Shown one piece after another: positions 2,005 to 9,878 of a stretch of DNA of 30,852 nt; the first letter of the stretch is position 1, and every line of letters starts with the position of its first letter. Where the stretch lies: positions 1-30,852 of IMG/VR virus record IMGVR_UViG_3300014613_000077, one strand, 5' to 3'. The translations under genes and the position numbers were made by a program. Source of the stretch: a virus. Its lineage: Duplodnaviria > Caudoviricetes. The notes beneath the pieces are model-generated. The model made no database searches and was not told the DNA's origin. It was given only the letters and a program-made list of their open reading frames with translations.

Positions 2005-2667
2005 GTGCAGGATATCGGAAGGCTCTATGATCAGATAGCACAAACCTATGACTCCCTTTATGTTCACCGGTTAGATCATAATGAGAATGTACTTATTTCA
2101 GAAATGCTTTGCGGATTTACTCATGGTAGGGTTCTTGATTTAGGGTGTGGAACTGGATTAGCCCTTTCGCTTAATGGGATAGAACCAAAACGATATTTGG
2201 GAATTGATATTTCAAGAGGGATGATTACAAGAGCAAAGGAGAAATATCCCGACGCCTCGTTTCGGTTAGCTGATATGGTATCTGTTCCGATCCCAGATCA
2301 GAGTATAGATAGTATAATTAGTCTGTTTGGCCCATTCTCTTATGTTGAAAAGCCTATATGGGCTGTAGCTGAGATTAGTAGATTATTACGGCCCGGAGGG
2401 ACCTTCTTTATTATGGCTTATGGATTAGGTCATACTCACAAGAAGGGATATTGTCTCTATCAGCATTCGGTTAGACGATTACTCTATACTACTGAATCGT
2501 TAAGAGATTTGTTTAAGTGGGAATTTACTGATATCGAGACTTATCCCTTTTCCTTTCGTTCTTTACCCATATTGCACCCTTCGCTCTATAAAAGGATCGA
2601 GCGATTTTTAAGACCCTGGAAAGCAGGAGCCAGCTTTATAATTATTACGGGAAGGAAGGAGCTTTAA
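2005..2667 (+). CDS. Class I SAM-dependent methyltransferase
   Basis: Motif I VLDLGCGTG, GIDIS..M, and L.PGG motif; small-molecule MTase-like, without the DPPY/PCQ motifs of DNA methyltransferases. Confidence 0.9.
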   Translation: MQDIGRLYDQIAQTYDSLYVHRLDHNENVLISEMLCGFTHGRVLDLGCGTGLALSLNGIEPKRYLGIDISRGMITRAKEKYPDASFRLADMVSVPIPDQSIDSIISLFGPFSYVEKPIWAVAEISRLLRPGGTFFIMAYGLGHTHKKGYCLYQHSVRRLLYTTESLRDLFKWEFTDIETYPFSFRSLPILHPSLYKRIERFLRPWKAGASFIIITGRKEL

Positions 2668-3815
2668 TGCCAATTCCTAGGTTTATGTTAGATACTAATG
2701 TTTTCGATGCTGCATTGGATCGATTAATTAAGCTATATGAAGAAGGACATAGGGTTGTAGTCTCATTCTCCGGGGGTAAGGATAGTACCGTTTGCCTTGA
2801 ATTATCGCTCCTAGCAGCCAAGTTGACTGATAGACTTCCGGTAGAAGTAGCGATGCGCGATGATGAAATTATGTTTCCAGGCACTTTTGAATATTCAGAG
2901 CGGGTTGCAGCCAGGCCGGAGATAAAGTTTCACTGGATTATTGCTAACCAGCCAGTAATAAATATGTTTAATCGCGCATCACCTTACTTTTGGGCGCTTG
3001 ATCCCTCATTACCGCCAGAGAAATGGGTTAGGCAGCCTCCAGTCTATGCCTATACGATTAAAAAGAACTTTATTGAAGCAATAATTCATCCCGATAAGAT
3101 GCCGCCCCCGGAGGGGAAGAAGCTAATTAGCATTATCGGGTTACGAGTACAAGAAAGCGGGCGAAGACGGCGCGGATTATATTCATCTGGCGGGTATATG
3201 ACTAAAGCGAATCGCTATGGCGTGCTTAATGGTCGGCCGATATATGATTGGACTGATGGCGATGTTTGGAAGGCGATTCTAGATAATAAATGGGATTACA
3301 ACGATGCTTATGATGTAATGCACAGATTAGGAGTGCACCGTAACGCCTTACGTATTGCTCCACCGACTCAAACTGCTGCTTCTATAGGTGCGCTTTGGGT
3401 AGGAGCGAGAGCATGGCCGAAGTGGTTCGATAAGGTTTGCGAACGATTACCAGGAGTACGATCCGCTTCAATGTTTGGTAAAAGATCAATAGAACCAATG
3501 AGGCCATTTAGTAAGACCTGGGAATATACCTATAAAAAGTTTTGTATTGATGAGGCTCCAGAGTGGATCGCACAGCGAGCGATAAAAGTAATGGATGATT
3601 ATTTAAGGAGACACTCTAGCCATTCATCTTATCCCTTCCCCGATATTCTAGGATGCTTAAAGTGCGGTGAACAGTTCGGGAGCTGGAAGCGGTTAGCCCA
3701 AATCATATATATGGGTGATCCGTTTTCCCTAAAGCAATCAGTTCTATCAGCAATAGAGCCAGAGTTCTTTAGGCCGGGATGGGGGACATGGGAAGGGGGA
3801 AAGCCGTCATGGTAA
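2667..3815 (+). CDS. PAPS-reductase-like PP-loop protein (IbrA-like)
   Basis: PP-loop VSFSGGKDS, GLR..ES..R, and PIYDW...DVW motifs; TAATG overlap with the MTase gene. Confidence 0.9.
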   Translation: MPIPRFMLDTNVFDAALDRLIKLYEEGHRVVVSFSGGKDSTVCLELSLLAAKLTDRLPVEVAMRDDEIMFPGTFEYSERVAARPEIKFHWIIANQPVINMFNRASPYFWALDPSLPPEKWVRQPPVYAYTIKKNFIEAIIHPDKMPPPEGKKLISIIGLRVQESGRRRRGLYSSGGYMTKANRYGVLNGRPIYDWTDGDVWKAILDNKWDYNDAYDVMHRLGVHRNALRIAPPTQTAASIGALWVGARAWPKWFDKVCERLPGVRSASMFGKRSIEPMRPFSKTWEYTYKKFCIDEAPEWIAQRAIKVMDDYLRRHSSHSSYPFPDILGCLKCGEQFGSWKRLAQIIYMGDPFSLKQSVLSAIEPEFFRPGWGTWEGGKPSW

Positions 3816-4072
3816 CAAAGTCGTTACTTGTACAGCTAGAACAGGCGAATTGGATTTGGGCGAAGACCTATGCTACCTTTGCGCCTCACTGGTATATCTT
3901 TGAGAAGGATAATTCAGAATTGTTTCCGAAGCTGTCTGTTCTTATTGAAAAGAAAGGGGAAGATAGAAGGTTCCGGAATACCGGTAAAATCTATCGCTAT
4001 CTAGTAATAGGTCAATACCAGTATTGGCGAATAGGCAATATTCTGAACCGAGCTAAGAAAGACGCACGTTAA
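3809..4072 (+). CDS. Hypothetical protein with W..AKT....PHWY motif
   Basis: ATG at 3809 preferred over 3779 (GGGGG SD, short overlap with the previous stop); I recall this motif next to phage PAPS-reductase/ParB genes but have not verified it. Confidence 0.7.
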   Translation: MVTKSLLVQLEQANWIWAKTYATFAPHWYIFEKDNSELFPKLSVLIEKKGEDRRFRNTGKIYRYLVIGQYQYWRIGNILNRAKKDAR

Positions 4073-4080
4073 GGAATCCA

Positions 4081-4926
4081 ATGAAGAAAGAAACAGAAGG
4101 CTTTAATACCTCGCCAGAAGAAACTCAAGAAGCAATTGTACAAAAGGGTATCAGGAAGGGAAAGAAAGAGATTGAGAAGAAGAATAAAGCCCTTGATACT
4201 CTTACCATTGAATACGTTTCGATAGATTCAATCAGACCAAATGATTATAACCCAAACCGCCAATCAGAGCATGATTTTGAGCTACTTTGCCGTTCGATGA
4301 TGGAAGATGGCTTTACTCAGCCTATAATCGTTATTAAGTCGAATAGAGAGATCGTTGATGGTGAGCATCGCTGGCGGGCAGCGAAGACCGTAGGCTATAA
4401 GGAAATTCCGGTCGTATTCGTGGATATGACACCGGAACAGGCCAGAATATCCACGTTAAGGCATAACCGGGCGAGGGGAACTGAGGACTTTAATCTCTCT
4501 GCTCAAGTATTACGCGATCTCCAAAAACTAGGGGCTATAGATTGGGCGCAGGATAGTCTTATGTTAAGCGATACCGAATTAAACAGGATGCTGGATGATG
4601 TTCAGGCAACGGATTTAGCATCTGAAGAATTTTCTCAGGCATGGGAGCCGGATAAGATAATTTCAGATGATATGAATGTTGAAGGCCGGCAAGAAGGTGA
4701 TATTCTTCGTGCTGGAAGCATAGCTGCGGTTAAGGATGTACGCGAGCGAGAACGCCTATTAAGAGAAGCCAAATCGCAGGAAGAACGCCTACAGATCAGA
4801 AAGGATATGGCGATATTCCGGATATCTCTAATCTTCTCTGGTGAGGAAGCCGAGTTAGTAAGGAGTGTACTTGGGACTAAACCGGCCGAAAAGCTGATAG
4901 AAATGTGTAAACTGGTTAAGGTGTAA
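4081..4926 (+). CDS. ParB/Srx-like N-terminal domain protein (IbrB-like)
   Basis: PNDYNPN, GFTQPI, IVDGEHRW and STLRHNRARG motifs match IbrB-type ParB proteins. Confidence 0.9.
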   Translation: MKKETEGFNTSPEETQEAIVQKGIRKGKKEIEKKNKALDTLTIEYVSIDSIRPNDYNPNRQSEHDFELLCRSMMEDGFTQPIIVIKSNREIVDGEHRWRAAKTVGYKEIPVVFVDMTPEQARISTLRHNRARGTEDFNLSAQVLRDLQKLGAIDWAQDSLMLSDTELNRMLDDVQATDLASEEFSQAWEPDKIISDDMNVEGRQEGDILRAGSIAAVKDVRERERLLREAKSQEERLQIRKDMAIFRISLIFSGEEAELVRSVLGTKPAEKLIEMCKLVKV

Positions 4927-6693: not shown

Positions 6694-7998
6694 ATGGAAA
6701 ATAATGGTCATAAAACCGTATATAGTGAGAGGATTACAACTAAACGTAATCCTCTTTTAGCTCTTGGAGTCAGGGGATTAAAAAACCTAGCTGGATATGT
6801 AAATGAAGAATACCTATCTATGCTTCAGTCATGGGATAAAGAAGCTAAGAACTATCTTGAGATGCGCGATGATTGTATTATTGCTACGATGTTGGATGCA
6901 ATCAAACTTCCTCTGTTAAAAGCACCGATAACAGTTGAATCAGTCTCGGAGGGGCTAGAAGATAAACTGGCTGCTGAATTTCTGGAAAAGAATATACATA
7001 ATATGAATCAGCAGCTATGGCTAGATCATGTTCAGGATATGCTTGAGTGCGTTGAATTTGGTTTTGCTATAGCCGAGATAACTCTGGAAAAACGAACCGA
7101 TGGTCATATCTGGATCAAGAATCTCGATCCCCGGGGCCAGGAGACTTTATATAAGTGGGGCTTTGGCGAAGGATCAGAAAGGGATACAACTAAGATATTC
7201 TATCAGCGTGATCCTGATAGCGGAGAAATCATGGAGATTCCGCTAGAAAAGTGCGTTCATGTTACTATGAGGGGAAGGAAGGGGAATCCGCAGGGCCATG
7301 CTTTATTACGCTCATTATTTAGGCCATGGAGAATGTGCCGCGATCTGGAGAATCTTGAGGCTATCGGAGTTGAAAGAGATGTAGGCGGTATGCCAGTAGC
7401 CAAGTTACCAGAAGGAAATATATCTGATAGCGATATGACCGATCTCAGAAATGCCTTAAAATCCCTTCGGATTGATGAAGCTTCGTTTCTAGTCTTACCC
7501 TTTGGGGTTGACGTTGGGCCTTATGGATCAGGAAATAAAACATATGACGTTTCGGTTATCATTGAACGTCTACAGAAGATGATCTTGGGCCGAGCATTTG
7601 CTCAATTCCTGAAGTTAGGCATGGATAACGTAGGTACTCAGGCATTGGTTAAAGGTAGCCAGGCGTTCTTTCAGTTACATCTAGGCGCAGTTCAGCAGGC
7701 TATTCTACCAGCATGGAATCAGCAGCTTATTCCGTATCTATTCCAGTATAATCACTTTCCGGGGATATCCGGTTATCCGAAATTAGCTTGGGCTGATCCC
7801 GGGCAGATAGACATAAATAATATTGTTCAGGCATTGGAAAAGGCTGCCGGGATAAAAATATTTACGCCAACGGATACTGATGAAGATAATCTGAGAGAAT
7901 TGATGAACTGGCCCGAATTACCGGAAAGCGAAAGGGGTATTCCTAGGGAACCGGAGAAGCCAAGTCTCTTAGATATTATAAAGACAGGTACTAAGTGA
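6694..7998 (+). CDS. Portal protein (DUF935 / Mu gp29-like)
   Basis: Follows terL; GF...EI, GNP.G..LLR..., ERD..GMP motifs; 434 aa. Confidence 0.88.
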   Translation: MENNGHKTVYSERITTKRNPLLALGVRGLKNLAGYVNEEYLSMLQSWDKEAKNYLEMRDDCIIATMLDAIKLPLLKAPITVESVSEGLEDKLAAEFLEKNIHNMNQQLWLDHVQDMLECVEFGFAIAEITLEKRTDGHIWIKNLDPRGQETLYKWGFGEGSERDTTKIFYQRDPDSGEIMEIPLEKCVHVTMRGRKGNPQGHALLRSLFRPWRMCRDLENLEAIGVERDVGGMPVAKLPEGNISDSDMTDLRNALKSLRIDEASFLVLPFGVDVGPYGSGNKTYDVSVIIERLQKMILGRAFAQFLKLGMDNVGTQALVKGSQAFFQLHLGAVQQAILPAWNQQLIPYLFQYNHFPGISGYPKLAWADPGQIDINNIVQALEKAAGIKIFTPTDTDEDNLRELMNWPELPESERGIPREPEKPSLLDIIKTGTK

Positions 7999-9575
7999 AC
8001 TTAAGGCCGAGCCCTGGAAGTTGGGAAGAAGTAACTAACCGCCAGCAAAGATTACTAGAGCGGACTTATAAAACCTGGAGCATGGATGTTAGAAAATCAC
8101 TCAAAAAGGCTACTCTTGCCGGGTTATTAGTTCCTTCCCTTAATACCATATTCGAGGCCAAGCTAAACGAACTTAAGGATAGATTGATCTCGATTGTTCA
8201 GCAGGGGGTAGATCGAGCAGCTAGGGCTTCAGCTAAATCTCGATTTGAAACTGATTTAGTTCAGAGTGTTGTCTCCATGCAAAAGGATGATATAGCCGTA
8301 ATGGTAACTGCATCCTTAATCCCCAATATTCATGCTAAATTACTTCCTACCATTGCGACAGGGCAAGCATTGAATTCTCAACTAATGATAGAAGGATTCG
8401 GTATGGGTGAGTCGTTAATCAGCCAGTATTCGGGTGCGGCATGGGTAACTATCTTCGAGGTTCAAAAGTCGCTAGGATTGCAACGTGAGGCCGAGCGTCT
8501 ACACTCTGGTGGAGAGATAGAACCAGTACGATGGGTACTTGATCCTATGGCTGAACATTGCCAGCGTGGAAGCGATGGCTACTTTGGATGTCCGGAACTA
8601 GAAGGAGAATATCCTGGCGGATGGTATACATTGCCAACAGTCCCGGCCGGGAAGGTAACTTGTCGCGGGAATGCAGTTTTACCTGGTAATATCATAGATT
8701 CGAATGATGTGGAATTAGCAGCCAGATTAAGTTATACAGGTCCCGCTCTGAAATTGATTACTCAAGGTGGTGTTGAAATCGCCATTACCGCCAATCACCC
8801 TGTACTCACGCCAAAGGGTTGGCTTCGCGCGAAGTCCCTGAATGAAGGCGATTATGTAATCAATAGCACCTTCAGTAAGACGCCGATGATTATTGTCAAT
8901 GATTATCATAAGGACGTGCCAGCCCTGATTGAGAAGATATGGGACACGTTCGCGGTAGTATCTGGAATCTATACTAGTCCACTTTCGCCCATTATGGCCG
9001 ATGATTTCCACGGCGATGGGAGGTTCTTGGATGGCGATGTCAAGATTGTATTTCCCGATAGCCAATTGAGGGATAAAACTAATTCCAATCAGTTCCAATC
9101 CGGAAATGATAGCCCGTTCAGTGAAGGATTGCTGGCTACAAGACCGCTGACGGCTGCTGGCTCTTTTATGAAGATCAATAGGGCTTCGCTTGCTACCGCG
9201 GATAGCCGTATGATAAGAAGCGATTTGGTTAATCCTTTGTTCGGGCGTCATTTTCGACCACTTAAGCTTTTCGGATTCGCTTTGAGTCCGAAGGTGAATT
9301 CCCTGTCTTTTGAGTGCATGGGCGATAACCCCGCGGCTTATCCCCAAATTACCCGACAACTTCAAGAGGCTTTCACTCGATTGGTAACGCTGGATAAGAT
9401 TACCAATATCATCAAATTCAACTATTCTGGCCATGCTTACGACCTTCAAACTTCTAGTGGTTATTATCTGGCTAACATTATATCACAACGACAGGGGATT
9501 ATTTTATCTAATTGCCGTTGTCACATTGAAGTCTTTCGCGATGGTAAATGGAAACGTGGAGTTTATGATGATTAA
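7995..9575 (+). CDS. MuF-like minor head protein containing an intein (526-aa precursor, predicted 246-aa spliced product)
   Basis: Follows the portal gene; VRW......EHC...C.EL.G motif; removing residues 227-506 restores the MuF-type C-terminus VTCRGNCRCHI. Confidence 0.85.
   Translation: MNLRPSPGSWEEVTNRQQRLLERTYKTWSMDVRKSLKKATLAGLLVPSLNTIFEAKLNELKDRLISIVQQGVDRAARASAKSRFETDLVQSVVSMQKDDIAVMVTASLIPNIHAKLLPTIATGQALNSQLMIEGFGMGESLISQYSGAAWVTIFEVQKSLGLQREAERLHSGGEIEPVRWVLDPMAEHCQRGSDGYFGCPELEGEYPGGWYTLPTVPAGKVTCRGNAVLPGNIIDSNDVELAARLSYTGPALKLITQGGVEIAITANHPVLTPKGWLRAKSLNEGDYVINSTFSKTPMIIVNDYHKDVPALIEKIWDTFAVVSGIYTSPLSPIMADDFHGDGRFLDGDVKIVFPDSQLRDKTNSNQFQSGNDSPFSEGLLATRPLTAAGSFMKINRASLATADSRMIRSDLVNPLFGRHFRPLKLFGFALSPKVNSLSFECMGDNPAAYPQITRQLQEAFTRLVTLDKITNIIKFNYSGHAYDLQTSSGYYLANIISQRQGIILSNCRCHIEVFRDGKWKRGVYDD
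8727..9434 (-). CDS. HTH + DUF559/Vsr-like PD-(D/E)xK endonuclease, putative homing endonuclease nested antisense in the intein
   Basis: N-terminal HTH (RYQSSESLLKLSGNLGISRGVIAHALKRQGI), basic linker, then S.TE...L...GI.F..Q..IGKY.LD...IAVEI.G...R..YL..QGW.VL; ATG at 9434 with GAAGGT 7 nt upstream (track start 9449 is a TTG). Confidence 0.8.
   Translation of the reverse strand: MARIVEFDDIGNLIQRYQSSESLLKLSGNLGISRGVIAHALKRQGIHLRTQSESEKLKWSKMTPEQRINQIASYHTAIRGSKRSPIDLHKRASSRQRSCSQQSFTERAIISGLELIGISFIPQLAIGKYNLDIAIQEPPIAVEIIGHNGRKWTSIDSRYYRERVPYLLNQGWHVLMIIIDNNHRRLTEGAIDYIIAFIQGLRAKPTLWREYRVIGGNGDFNTTLSNQFQSGTCIT
9477..9485 (-). promoter_or_regulatory. Extended -10 promoter TGATATAAT driving the antisense endonuclease
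   Basis: Reverse complement of attatatca (9477-9485) is a perfect TGnTATAAT, about 42 nt upstream of the ATG at 9434; no clear -35. Confidence 0.7.
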
Positions 9576-9777
9576 TCGTTTCAGCGAGAGGAAAGACGGA
9601 GTATACAGTATCTATTGCGATTGCTGTGGGAGAGAAAAGCTGGCTGAGATTAGGGATAACAAATTAGTTATCATGGATCGACGGCATGGAAAGAGACATA
9701 TTACGGTTATTAATATCAGGGAACTAAACGAGCTATCGAACGATAGACTATTGACAAATACCAGTTCTCATATATAA
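9568..9777 (+). CDS. Small Zn-binding protein, Mu Com-like
   Basis: CDCCG.EKLAEI....LVI..RRH...H resembles Com (CxxCxxxLA...IxCxR); ATG at 9568 with GGAG SD is more plausible than track start 9433. Confidence 0.6.
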   Translation: MINRFSERKDGVYSIYCDCCGREKLAEIRDNKLVIMDRRHGKRHITVINIRELNELSNDRLLTNTSSHI

Positions 9778-9778
9778 T
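9751..9778 (+). promoter_or_regulatory. Consensus sigma70 promoter for the capsid operon
   Basis: TTGACA (9751-9756), 16 nt, TATAAT (9773-9778). Confidence 0.8.
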
Positions 9779-9835
9779 AGGAATTAGGTATATTACGTAA
9801 TCTAGGCGGATAACCGCCTTATACAGGCAAGAGAT

Positions 9836-9878
9836 TAGCCCCGTTGGGTAGAAAACTGCTCGGCGGGGTTATTTTTTT
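9836..9878 (+). terminator. Intrinsic terminator / attenuator hairpin
   Basis: TAGCCCCGTTGGGTAG-AAAA-CTGCTCGGCGGGGTTA stem (several G-U pairs) followed by T7. Confidence 0.75.

Follow-up and report, generated by a model that had tools for sequence, protein, structure and literature searches.

A phage head-gene intein that begins with alanine and carries a predicted Vsr-fold homing nuclease on its antisense strand

Described two-strand inteins and the locus studied here

The closest described systems are inteins of actinobacteriophages. A preprint by Gosselin, Arsenault and Gogarten (bioRxiv 10.1101/2025.01.02.630785) presents in its main text full inteins whose VSR-like, possibly EDxHD, endonucleases are antisense. 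It reports an HHpred match to 3R3P and non-canonical endonucleases in all minor capsid inteins, and it also refers to inteins with antisense LAGLIDADG endonucleases from 1998. In the available parts of the papers on I-Bth0305I (PMC3239194) and its family (PMC2677866), EDxHD enzymes reside in group I introns or are free-standing between split-intein halves. Second-frame endonucleases over a stop-free passenger, with frame-dependent selection and a putative Shine-Dalgarno sequence, appear in the accessible text on a cyanobacterial dnaX intein (bioRxiv 10.64898/2026.09.14.751524) and on the hidden HNH of ShiLan (PMC11855218). With respect to splicing, the available part of a 2014 review (PMC4031507) states that all class 2 inteins are KlbA orthologues derived from a single event, and that class 1 inteins generally depend on Cys1 for splicing.

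We analysed a viral DNA stretch of 30,852 nucleotides (Caudoviricetes; IMG/VR record IMGVR_UViG_3300014613_000077), hereafter the window, in which an intein and an antisense nuclease gene share the same DNA (Table 1). The original prediction knew of no description of such an architecture; the layout is in fact already in the main text of the Gosselin preprint. Shared features are a contiguous intein, an unstructured in-frame insert, a Vsr-fold ORF that is antisense and helical in its N-terminal part, and a match to 3R3P/1CW0. Additionally, Gordonia phages have homologues of the window nuclease on the antisense strand of MuF-like genes. The inteins of the preprint's main text are class 1 and class 3 only, whereas the window intein has Ala1; their splicing domain is typically free of the second ORF, whereas the window ORF overlaps blocks B and F; the words 'promoter' and 'start codon' occur zero times in that main text, whereas signals for the window nuclease are predicted within the splicing region. 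The preprint family is actinophage, whereas the relatives of the window extend far beyond actinophages, a comparison that takes the preprint members from its main text only. The out-of-frame LAGLIDADG of dnaX and the HNH of ShiLan belong, by the accessible accounts, to other nuclease families in +2 or out-of-frame ORFs, and ShiLan has no splicing domain, unlike the window intein. The two-strand intein/Vsr layout is already known; what sets the present case apart is that the intein starts with Ala1, a start that arose repeatedly on the tree, and that expression signals are predicted inside it, two features on which the original prediction did not remark. Our literature search, which covered few subscription journals, found no paper on a class 2 intein outside KlbA or on promoter or ribosome-binding signals in these inteins.

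Table 1. Features of the intein-bearing gene and of its antisense nuclease gene (positions in the window)
Feature	Position	Strand	Remarks
Sense host ORF	7995-9575	+	526 aa, intein-containing
N-extein, gene in head-morphogenesis slot	7995..8672	+	226 aa; C-terminal VTCRGN
Intein	8673..9512	+	280 aa; from Pfam, AF2 and empty-allele junctions
Intein residues, N-terminal region	Ala1 8673-8675; Thr B7 8787-8789; His B10 8796-8798	+	
Sense passenger insert	8862..9383	+	174 aa; conserved residues (DFHGD etc.) read as shadow of antisense codons
Intein residues, C-terminal region	Asp F4 9441-9443; Ser G6 9507-9509; Asn G7 9510-9512	+	
C-extein	9513..9575	+	20 aa + stop; begins with Cys+1 of CRC; matches C-terminus of intein-free homologues
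Antisense nuclease gene	8727..9434	-	235 aa from ATG; 240 aa from TTG (9449)
Antisense protein parts	HTH aa 1-46; helical linker; Vsr/DUF559-fold domain ~aa 100-221		E106, D132, E143, R163
Predicted ATG start codon	9432..9434	-	reverse complement of His codon CAT just before block F
Shine-Dalgarno-like GAAGGT	9442..9447	-	7 nt before ATG; formed by Asp-Leu codons of block F
Extended -10 promoter motif TGATATAAT	9477..9485	-	inside C-terminal splicing region; also in L001

Intein, host gene and antisense protein

The predicted 280-aa intein was borne out by the Pfam Intein_splicing model (36.5 bits; cut-off 35.8) and by empty alleles. Its boundaries are exact because 24 of 26 intein-free N-extein homologues read CRGN|CRC at the junction; one reads CRGT|CRC and one has diverged, and one of the 26 was read by eye, the motif script having matched upstream. 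A shifted N-junction with Cys -4 as residue 1 was rejected with the empty-allele junctions and the intein alignment. The host gene sits between portal and maturation protease in a packaging/head module of terminase, portal, intein-bearing gene, maturation protease and major head protein (PHROGs), and this gene order together with the C-terminal CxC site fits MuF (PF04233) head morphogenesis proteins. The N-exteins of 109 family members comprise 65 with a Phage_Mu_F match, 7 with Phage_min_cap2, 6 with VG15 and 31 with none of these (E<=0.01). The window host protein gives neither a Pfam Phage_Mu_F nor a PHROG match, and its 26 empty homologues likewise lack Phage_Mu_F; the description of the ORF as MuF-like is based on its relatives and gene position. 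We take IPR006528, the InterPro label used in the actinophage preprint, to be the MuF domain.

Several side observations concern the surroundings of the intein. The C-terminal CxGNCRC domain of the host is also found fused to 2'-5' RNA ligase-like domains or Mu-type portals (P0197-P0239). At one related locus (L167:2739-3098, minus strand), an intein C-terminal match just upstream of the intein suggests two inteins in one host gene. In the window, methyltransferase, PAPS-reductase-like and ParB-like genes lie between the small and large terminase genes (2005-4926; PHROGs) and possibly form a DNA-modification module, and just before the protease gene (9751-9871, plus strand) a 12/12 sigma70 promoter motif precedes a 16-bp hairpin and T run.

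The fold check on both frames came out as anticipated, with Hint only on the plus strand and an HTH followed by a Vsr/DUF559 fold on the minus strand. In the AF2 model of the whole sense intein, the Hint halves are mostly above pLDDT 90; the insert is mostly below 50 over residues 141-218 and at 64-89 over residues 81-130. All 32 structural matches of this whole-intein model at Z>=2 are Hint-type, the insert contributing no fold match beyond Hint, and the 174-aa insert alone matches zero Pfam families at E<=1. The passenger peptide shows no recognisable fold by these searches, in keeping with the earlier reading of it.

That the minus-strand ORF lies within the intein and in exact codon register with it was confirmed; sense DFHGD, for example, is antisense IAVEI. 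The probability of 235 open antisense codons arising by chance is ~1e-6 to 3e-8, given the window's own codon usage. The ORF reaches past the insert on both sides, with its start in block F and its final ~45 codons opposite the N-terminal splicing region, block B included. Pfam matches of the antisense protein all fall below curated cut-offs (MTES_1575, E 2.5e-5; DUF559, E 1.2e-3; HTH_58, E 0.013). Its AF2 model, built with 144 sequences (pLDDT 91.1, pTM 0.77), matches 3HRL (Z 10.8, rmsd 1.8, 89 aligned), Vsr 1CW0 (Z 10.6, rmsd 2.6, 111 aligned) and I-Bth0305I 3R3P (Z 10.5, rmsd 2.8, 95 aligned) in structural comparison (VIA). Additionally, an 18-sequence nuclease profile matches 3R3P with E 1.5e-6; a single-sequence search of solved structures gave zero matches, so that the profile was needed, and Foldseek with the nuclease model returned nothing at E<=0.001, the E-values being only 0.01-0.07. 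Residues 1-46 resemble HTH domains, and many relatives have two such domains.

The protein shares with I-Bth0305I the Vsr-like catalytic fold and an N-terminal DNA-binding part. In the comparison with the available part of PMC3239194, window E106, D132 and E143 correspond to E170, D196 and, at the position of Vsr Phe62, an acidic residue of I-Bth0305I; the positions of H213 and D222 are unmatched. Among 144 aligned nuclease relatives, E106 is kept in 141 and D132 in all 144; the codon census across inteins gives Asp at D132 in 130/130, and Glu in 128/129 at both E143 and E106. The EDxHD His is present as GGxWH in 94/144 relatives; the window is without it and has H147 in a low-confidence loop. 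The region aligned with the final Asp (D222) has R163, kept in 140/144 relatives. The EDxHD motif is thus incomplete, and the nuclease is described here as one that appears to work like EDxHD enzymes, not as a strict member. It also differs in setting, being antisense in a contiguous intein.

Family extent, selection and predicted expression signals

The nuclease-intein family spans many phage groups, far beyond actinophages. The nuclease matches 105 deposited records of phages whose hosts include Salmonella, Pseudomonas, Gordonia, Escherichia and Vibrio; one cultured carrier is Gordonia phage Fosterous. An exhaustive search at E<=1e-10 yielded 1,201 clusters at 50% identity, turning a rare actinophage curiosity into a large family. 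In 10/10 inspected records a longer annotated gene encloses the nuclease on its antisense strand, and the nuclease carries no annotation of its own; the host genes are named head or minor capsid proteins in five and hypothetical in the other five.

Both frames stay open across this family. A nuclease-selected set of 169 loci gave 131 clusters at 95% identity, one of them a copy of the window; the intein frame is open in exact register in 130, and the other two frames always contain stops. Two further loci (L170 and L171) were set aside as brief matches no better than chance. An intein-selected set avoids the bias of the nuclease search and was made from the best 80 of 550 loci, of which 4 incomplete ones were dropped, leaving 67 clusters. 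Among these best-ranked loci the antisense frame is open between blocks B and F in 66/67 clusters, and in 55/56 of those new to the nuclease-selected set (two delimited short); decay is undersampled here because mini-inteins would not rank in the best 80. The expectation that the antisense ORF stays open in homologues was upheld in both sets. The absence of TTA/CTA/TCA codons from the nuclease frame was discarded as evidence, being circular because loci had been filtered for an open sense frame, and is kept only for the contrast with one locus (L142:1547-2672). There 11 stops interrupt the intein frame and a whole host gene lies upstream, while the nuclease ORF is intact: the nuclease seems released from its intein. 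A single in-frame stop in an otherwise typical antisense nuclease (L190) is a candidate for early decay or a sequencing error.

Which strand is under selection was judged from the wobble positions, sense position 1 being antisense wobble. Among 21 independent pairs chosen by sense identity, position 1 is more variable than position 3 in the insert in 20; the same pattern occurs in 1/19 N-exteins and in 1/21 in each splicing half. Between the window and its relative L001, divergence at sense positions 1/2/3 is 0.27/0.09/0.13 in the insert, 0.04/0.04/0.39 in the C-terminal splicing region and 0.35/0.12/0.59 in the C-extein. The codon census agrees: the sense column opposite D132 is Val or Ile, always encoded by the two codons that give antisense Asp (130/130), and sense F/L opposite E143 and E106 behaves likewise. 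These patterns indicate that purifying selection acts on the antisense frame in the insert and on the sense frame in the splicing halves and exteins, and that sense-residue conservation in the insert reflects the antisense codons. The dual coding proposed at the outset, with the antisense frame as the selected one in the insert, is supported by the wobble flip together with the census.

The predicted signals for expression of the nuclease, namely a start codon, a Shine-Dalgarno sequence and a -10 motif, occupy synonymous positions within the C-terminal splicing region of the intein. Counted with related inteins taken as independent, the His just before block F is encoded by CAT (giving ATG) in 82/93 and by CAC (giving GTG) in 11/93, compared with CAT for 167/387 extein His codons; among 35 inteins without this His, 21 have ATG two codons on. 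The family Shine-Dalgarno consensus GAGGT at -12..-8 is formed by the Asp/Asn-Leu codons of block F, and its Leu codon is CTC in 83/109 inteins versus 264/1193 in exteins, counted in the same way. For the promoter, the initial range of 35-70 nt upstream gave exact TATAAT in 27/128 inteins versus 3.5 expected. The range was changed to 25-60 nt after a second register was seen, and the resulting 52/128 inteins with exact TATAAT, versus 7.4 +/- 2.4 expected from synonymous resampling, is a post hoc figure that again counts related inteins as independent. With the same post hoc range and the same treatment, an extended -10 or a -35/-10 pair occurs in 52 inteins versus 4.9 expected, and promoter motifs are absent in 76/128 relatives. 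For the window gene, a consensus scan that requires a -35 box found no -35 box and no conventional promoter near the start, and no terminator-like site was found in 7900-8800. The embedded signals offer a testable answer to how a hidden antisense gene is expressed. In the window clade, 6-7 residues are inserted in the C-terminal splicing region directly behind the codons of the extended -10 motif (9477-9506).

Homing, the alanine start and alternative explanations

Homing is the cleavage of an empty allele followed by repair-mediated copying. In a tree of 37 N-exteins, the 12 intein-bearing ones do not form one clade (p-AU 1e-38; at least 5 changes), the intein-bearing extein of P0185 is 99% identical to that of empty P0156, and the inteins of the window and L001 are 75% identical and their exteins 50%. 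These observations are consistent with the mobility proposed earlier: the patchy presence of the intein on the host tree fits homing, and repeated loss could also produce it. The natural empty allele L253 agrees with the window's flanks at 26/30 and 25/30 bases. Target symmetry was rejected as evidence, the 10-bp core of empty sites being 8/10 palindromic in 6/12 loci and 4-6/10 in the rest. Contigs of four DNA runs contained no joint that skips the intein, which says nothing either way.

The first residue sets the window intein apart, as 121/124 family inteins start with Cys and the window's starts with Ala. Its residues form the full class 2 (KlbA-type) set of Ala1, Thr B7, His B10, Asp F4, Ser G6, Asn G7 and Cys+1, each shared with class 2 Mja KlbA in the available parts of PMC4031507 and PMC7765530; a class 3 assignment was rejected with Asp, and no Cys, at F4. 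Of the solved structures, KlbA (2JMZ) gives the best sequence match both to the window intein (E 0.005) and to the family profile (E 6.5e-12); in the fold search with the window intein it ranked 22nd (Z 9.1). The window intein is nonetheless not a KlbA orthologue: its host is a phage head gene, and on the tree it is nested among Cys1/Ser1 inteins. Ala1 was found in seven inteins; all keep Asp F4 and His B10, and four of the seven have His instead of Ser at G6. On a 42-row subset of the 128-row tree, Ala1 inteins need three changes and their monophyly is rejected (p-AU 3e-117). The well-supported window clade comprises three Ala1 inteins among Cys1 and Ser1 inteins of the same site; the Cys1/Ser1 sisters there (P0185-P0189) are 51-54% identical, whereas within the clade inteins are 57-75% identical to that of the window and exteins 47-50%.

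We consider it likely that an antisense-encoded homing nuclease is combined here with an Ala1 intein using the class 2 route. An HTH plus Vsr-fold protein would be made separately from its own antisense promoter TGATATAAT (9485-9477) and ribosome-binding site, with translation from the ATG at 9434. The nuclease would cut empty head-gene alleles near CRGN|CRC, and repair of the cut allele would copy the intein in; the Ala1 splicing domain would excise itself by direct attack of Cys+1. On the evidence of the sequences compared, the antisense gene is almost certainly real and expressed in the family, and its protein very probably has a homing nuclease role. It is fairly probable that the window's own Ala1 copy still splices, and if it does, the class 2 route is its likely mechanism.

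As an alternative, the ORF might be a mere reverse-frame shadow of a conserved sense protein, or a dead relic; reverse frames in register are often open, and the Pfam matches are weak. This reading is already contradicted by the wobble flip, the open antisense frames and the codon census, and its probability is close to nil: wobble moves to the antisense frame in the insert, antisense codons explain the sense conservation, a confident nuclease fold stands against no fold match for the insert, and only 1/67 intein-selected clusters has an antisense stop. Alternatively, the antisense protein could be real and act as a DNA-binding regulator or a non-homing nuclease, the intein spreading otherwise. 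The HTH domain, doubled in many relatives, and the partly kept EDxHD motif suit such a role, but the three acidic Vsr/I-Bth0305I active-site residues are almost invariant, intein presence is patchy, and the nuclease is seen outside an intact intein frame in only 1/131 clusters. We regard this as quite improbable.

The remaining alternative accepts the nuclease as a real homing enzyme and places the defect in the intein, which would no longer splice, with C-end cleavage only or none, while the phage tolerates a broken accessory head protein. Cys1 is the norm (121/124), class 1 inteins cannot bypass step 1 according to the accessible text of PMC4031507, so that Ala1 could be a defect, and the C-extein is only 20 aa long. 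However, Ala1 persists in a well-supported clade at the intein and extein identities given above, all seven Ala1 inteins retain Asp F4 and His B10, and in the Ala1 pair of the window and L001 the splicing residues and the CRC C-extein are under purifying selection. Loss of splicing is therefore an unlikely explanation, and a splicing Ala1 intein with an antisense homing nuclease remains the reading we prefer.

We see an even chance that class 2 splicing arose at least three times in one phage intein family outside KlbA, while an antisense nuclease, with its promoter, ribosome-binding site and start codon all embedded in the catalytic blocks of the intein, keeps the elements mobile. If so, the Cys1/Ser1 sisters at this site would offer natural controls on how an intein manages to dispense with its first nucleophile. 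P0199, P0207, P0210 and L184 form a group of their own with short Ala1 inteins (249 aa), L184 being assigned by length and motifs, outside the tree; the antisense nuclease of L184 is shortened but open, and the hosts of the other three are Phage_min_cap2.
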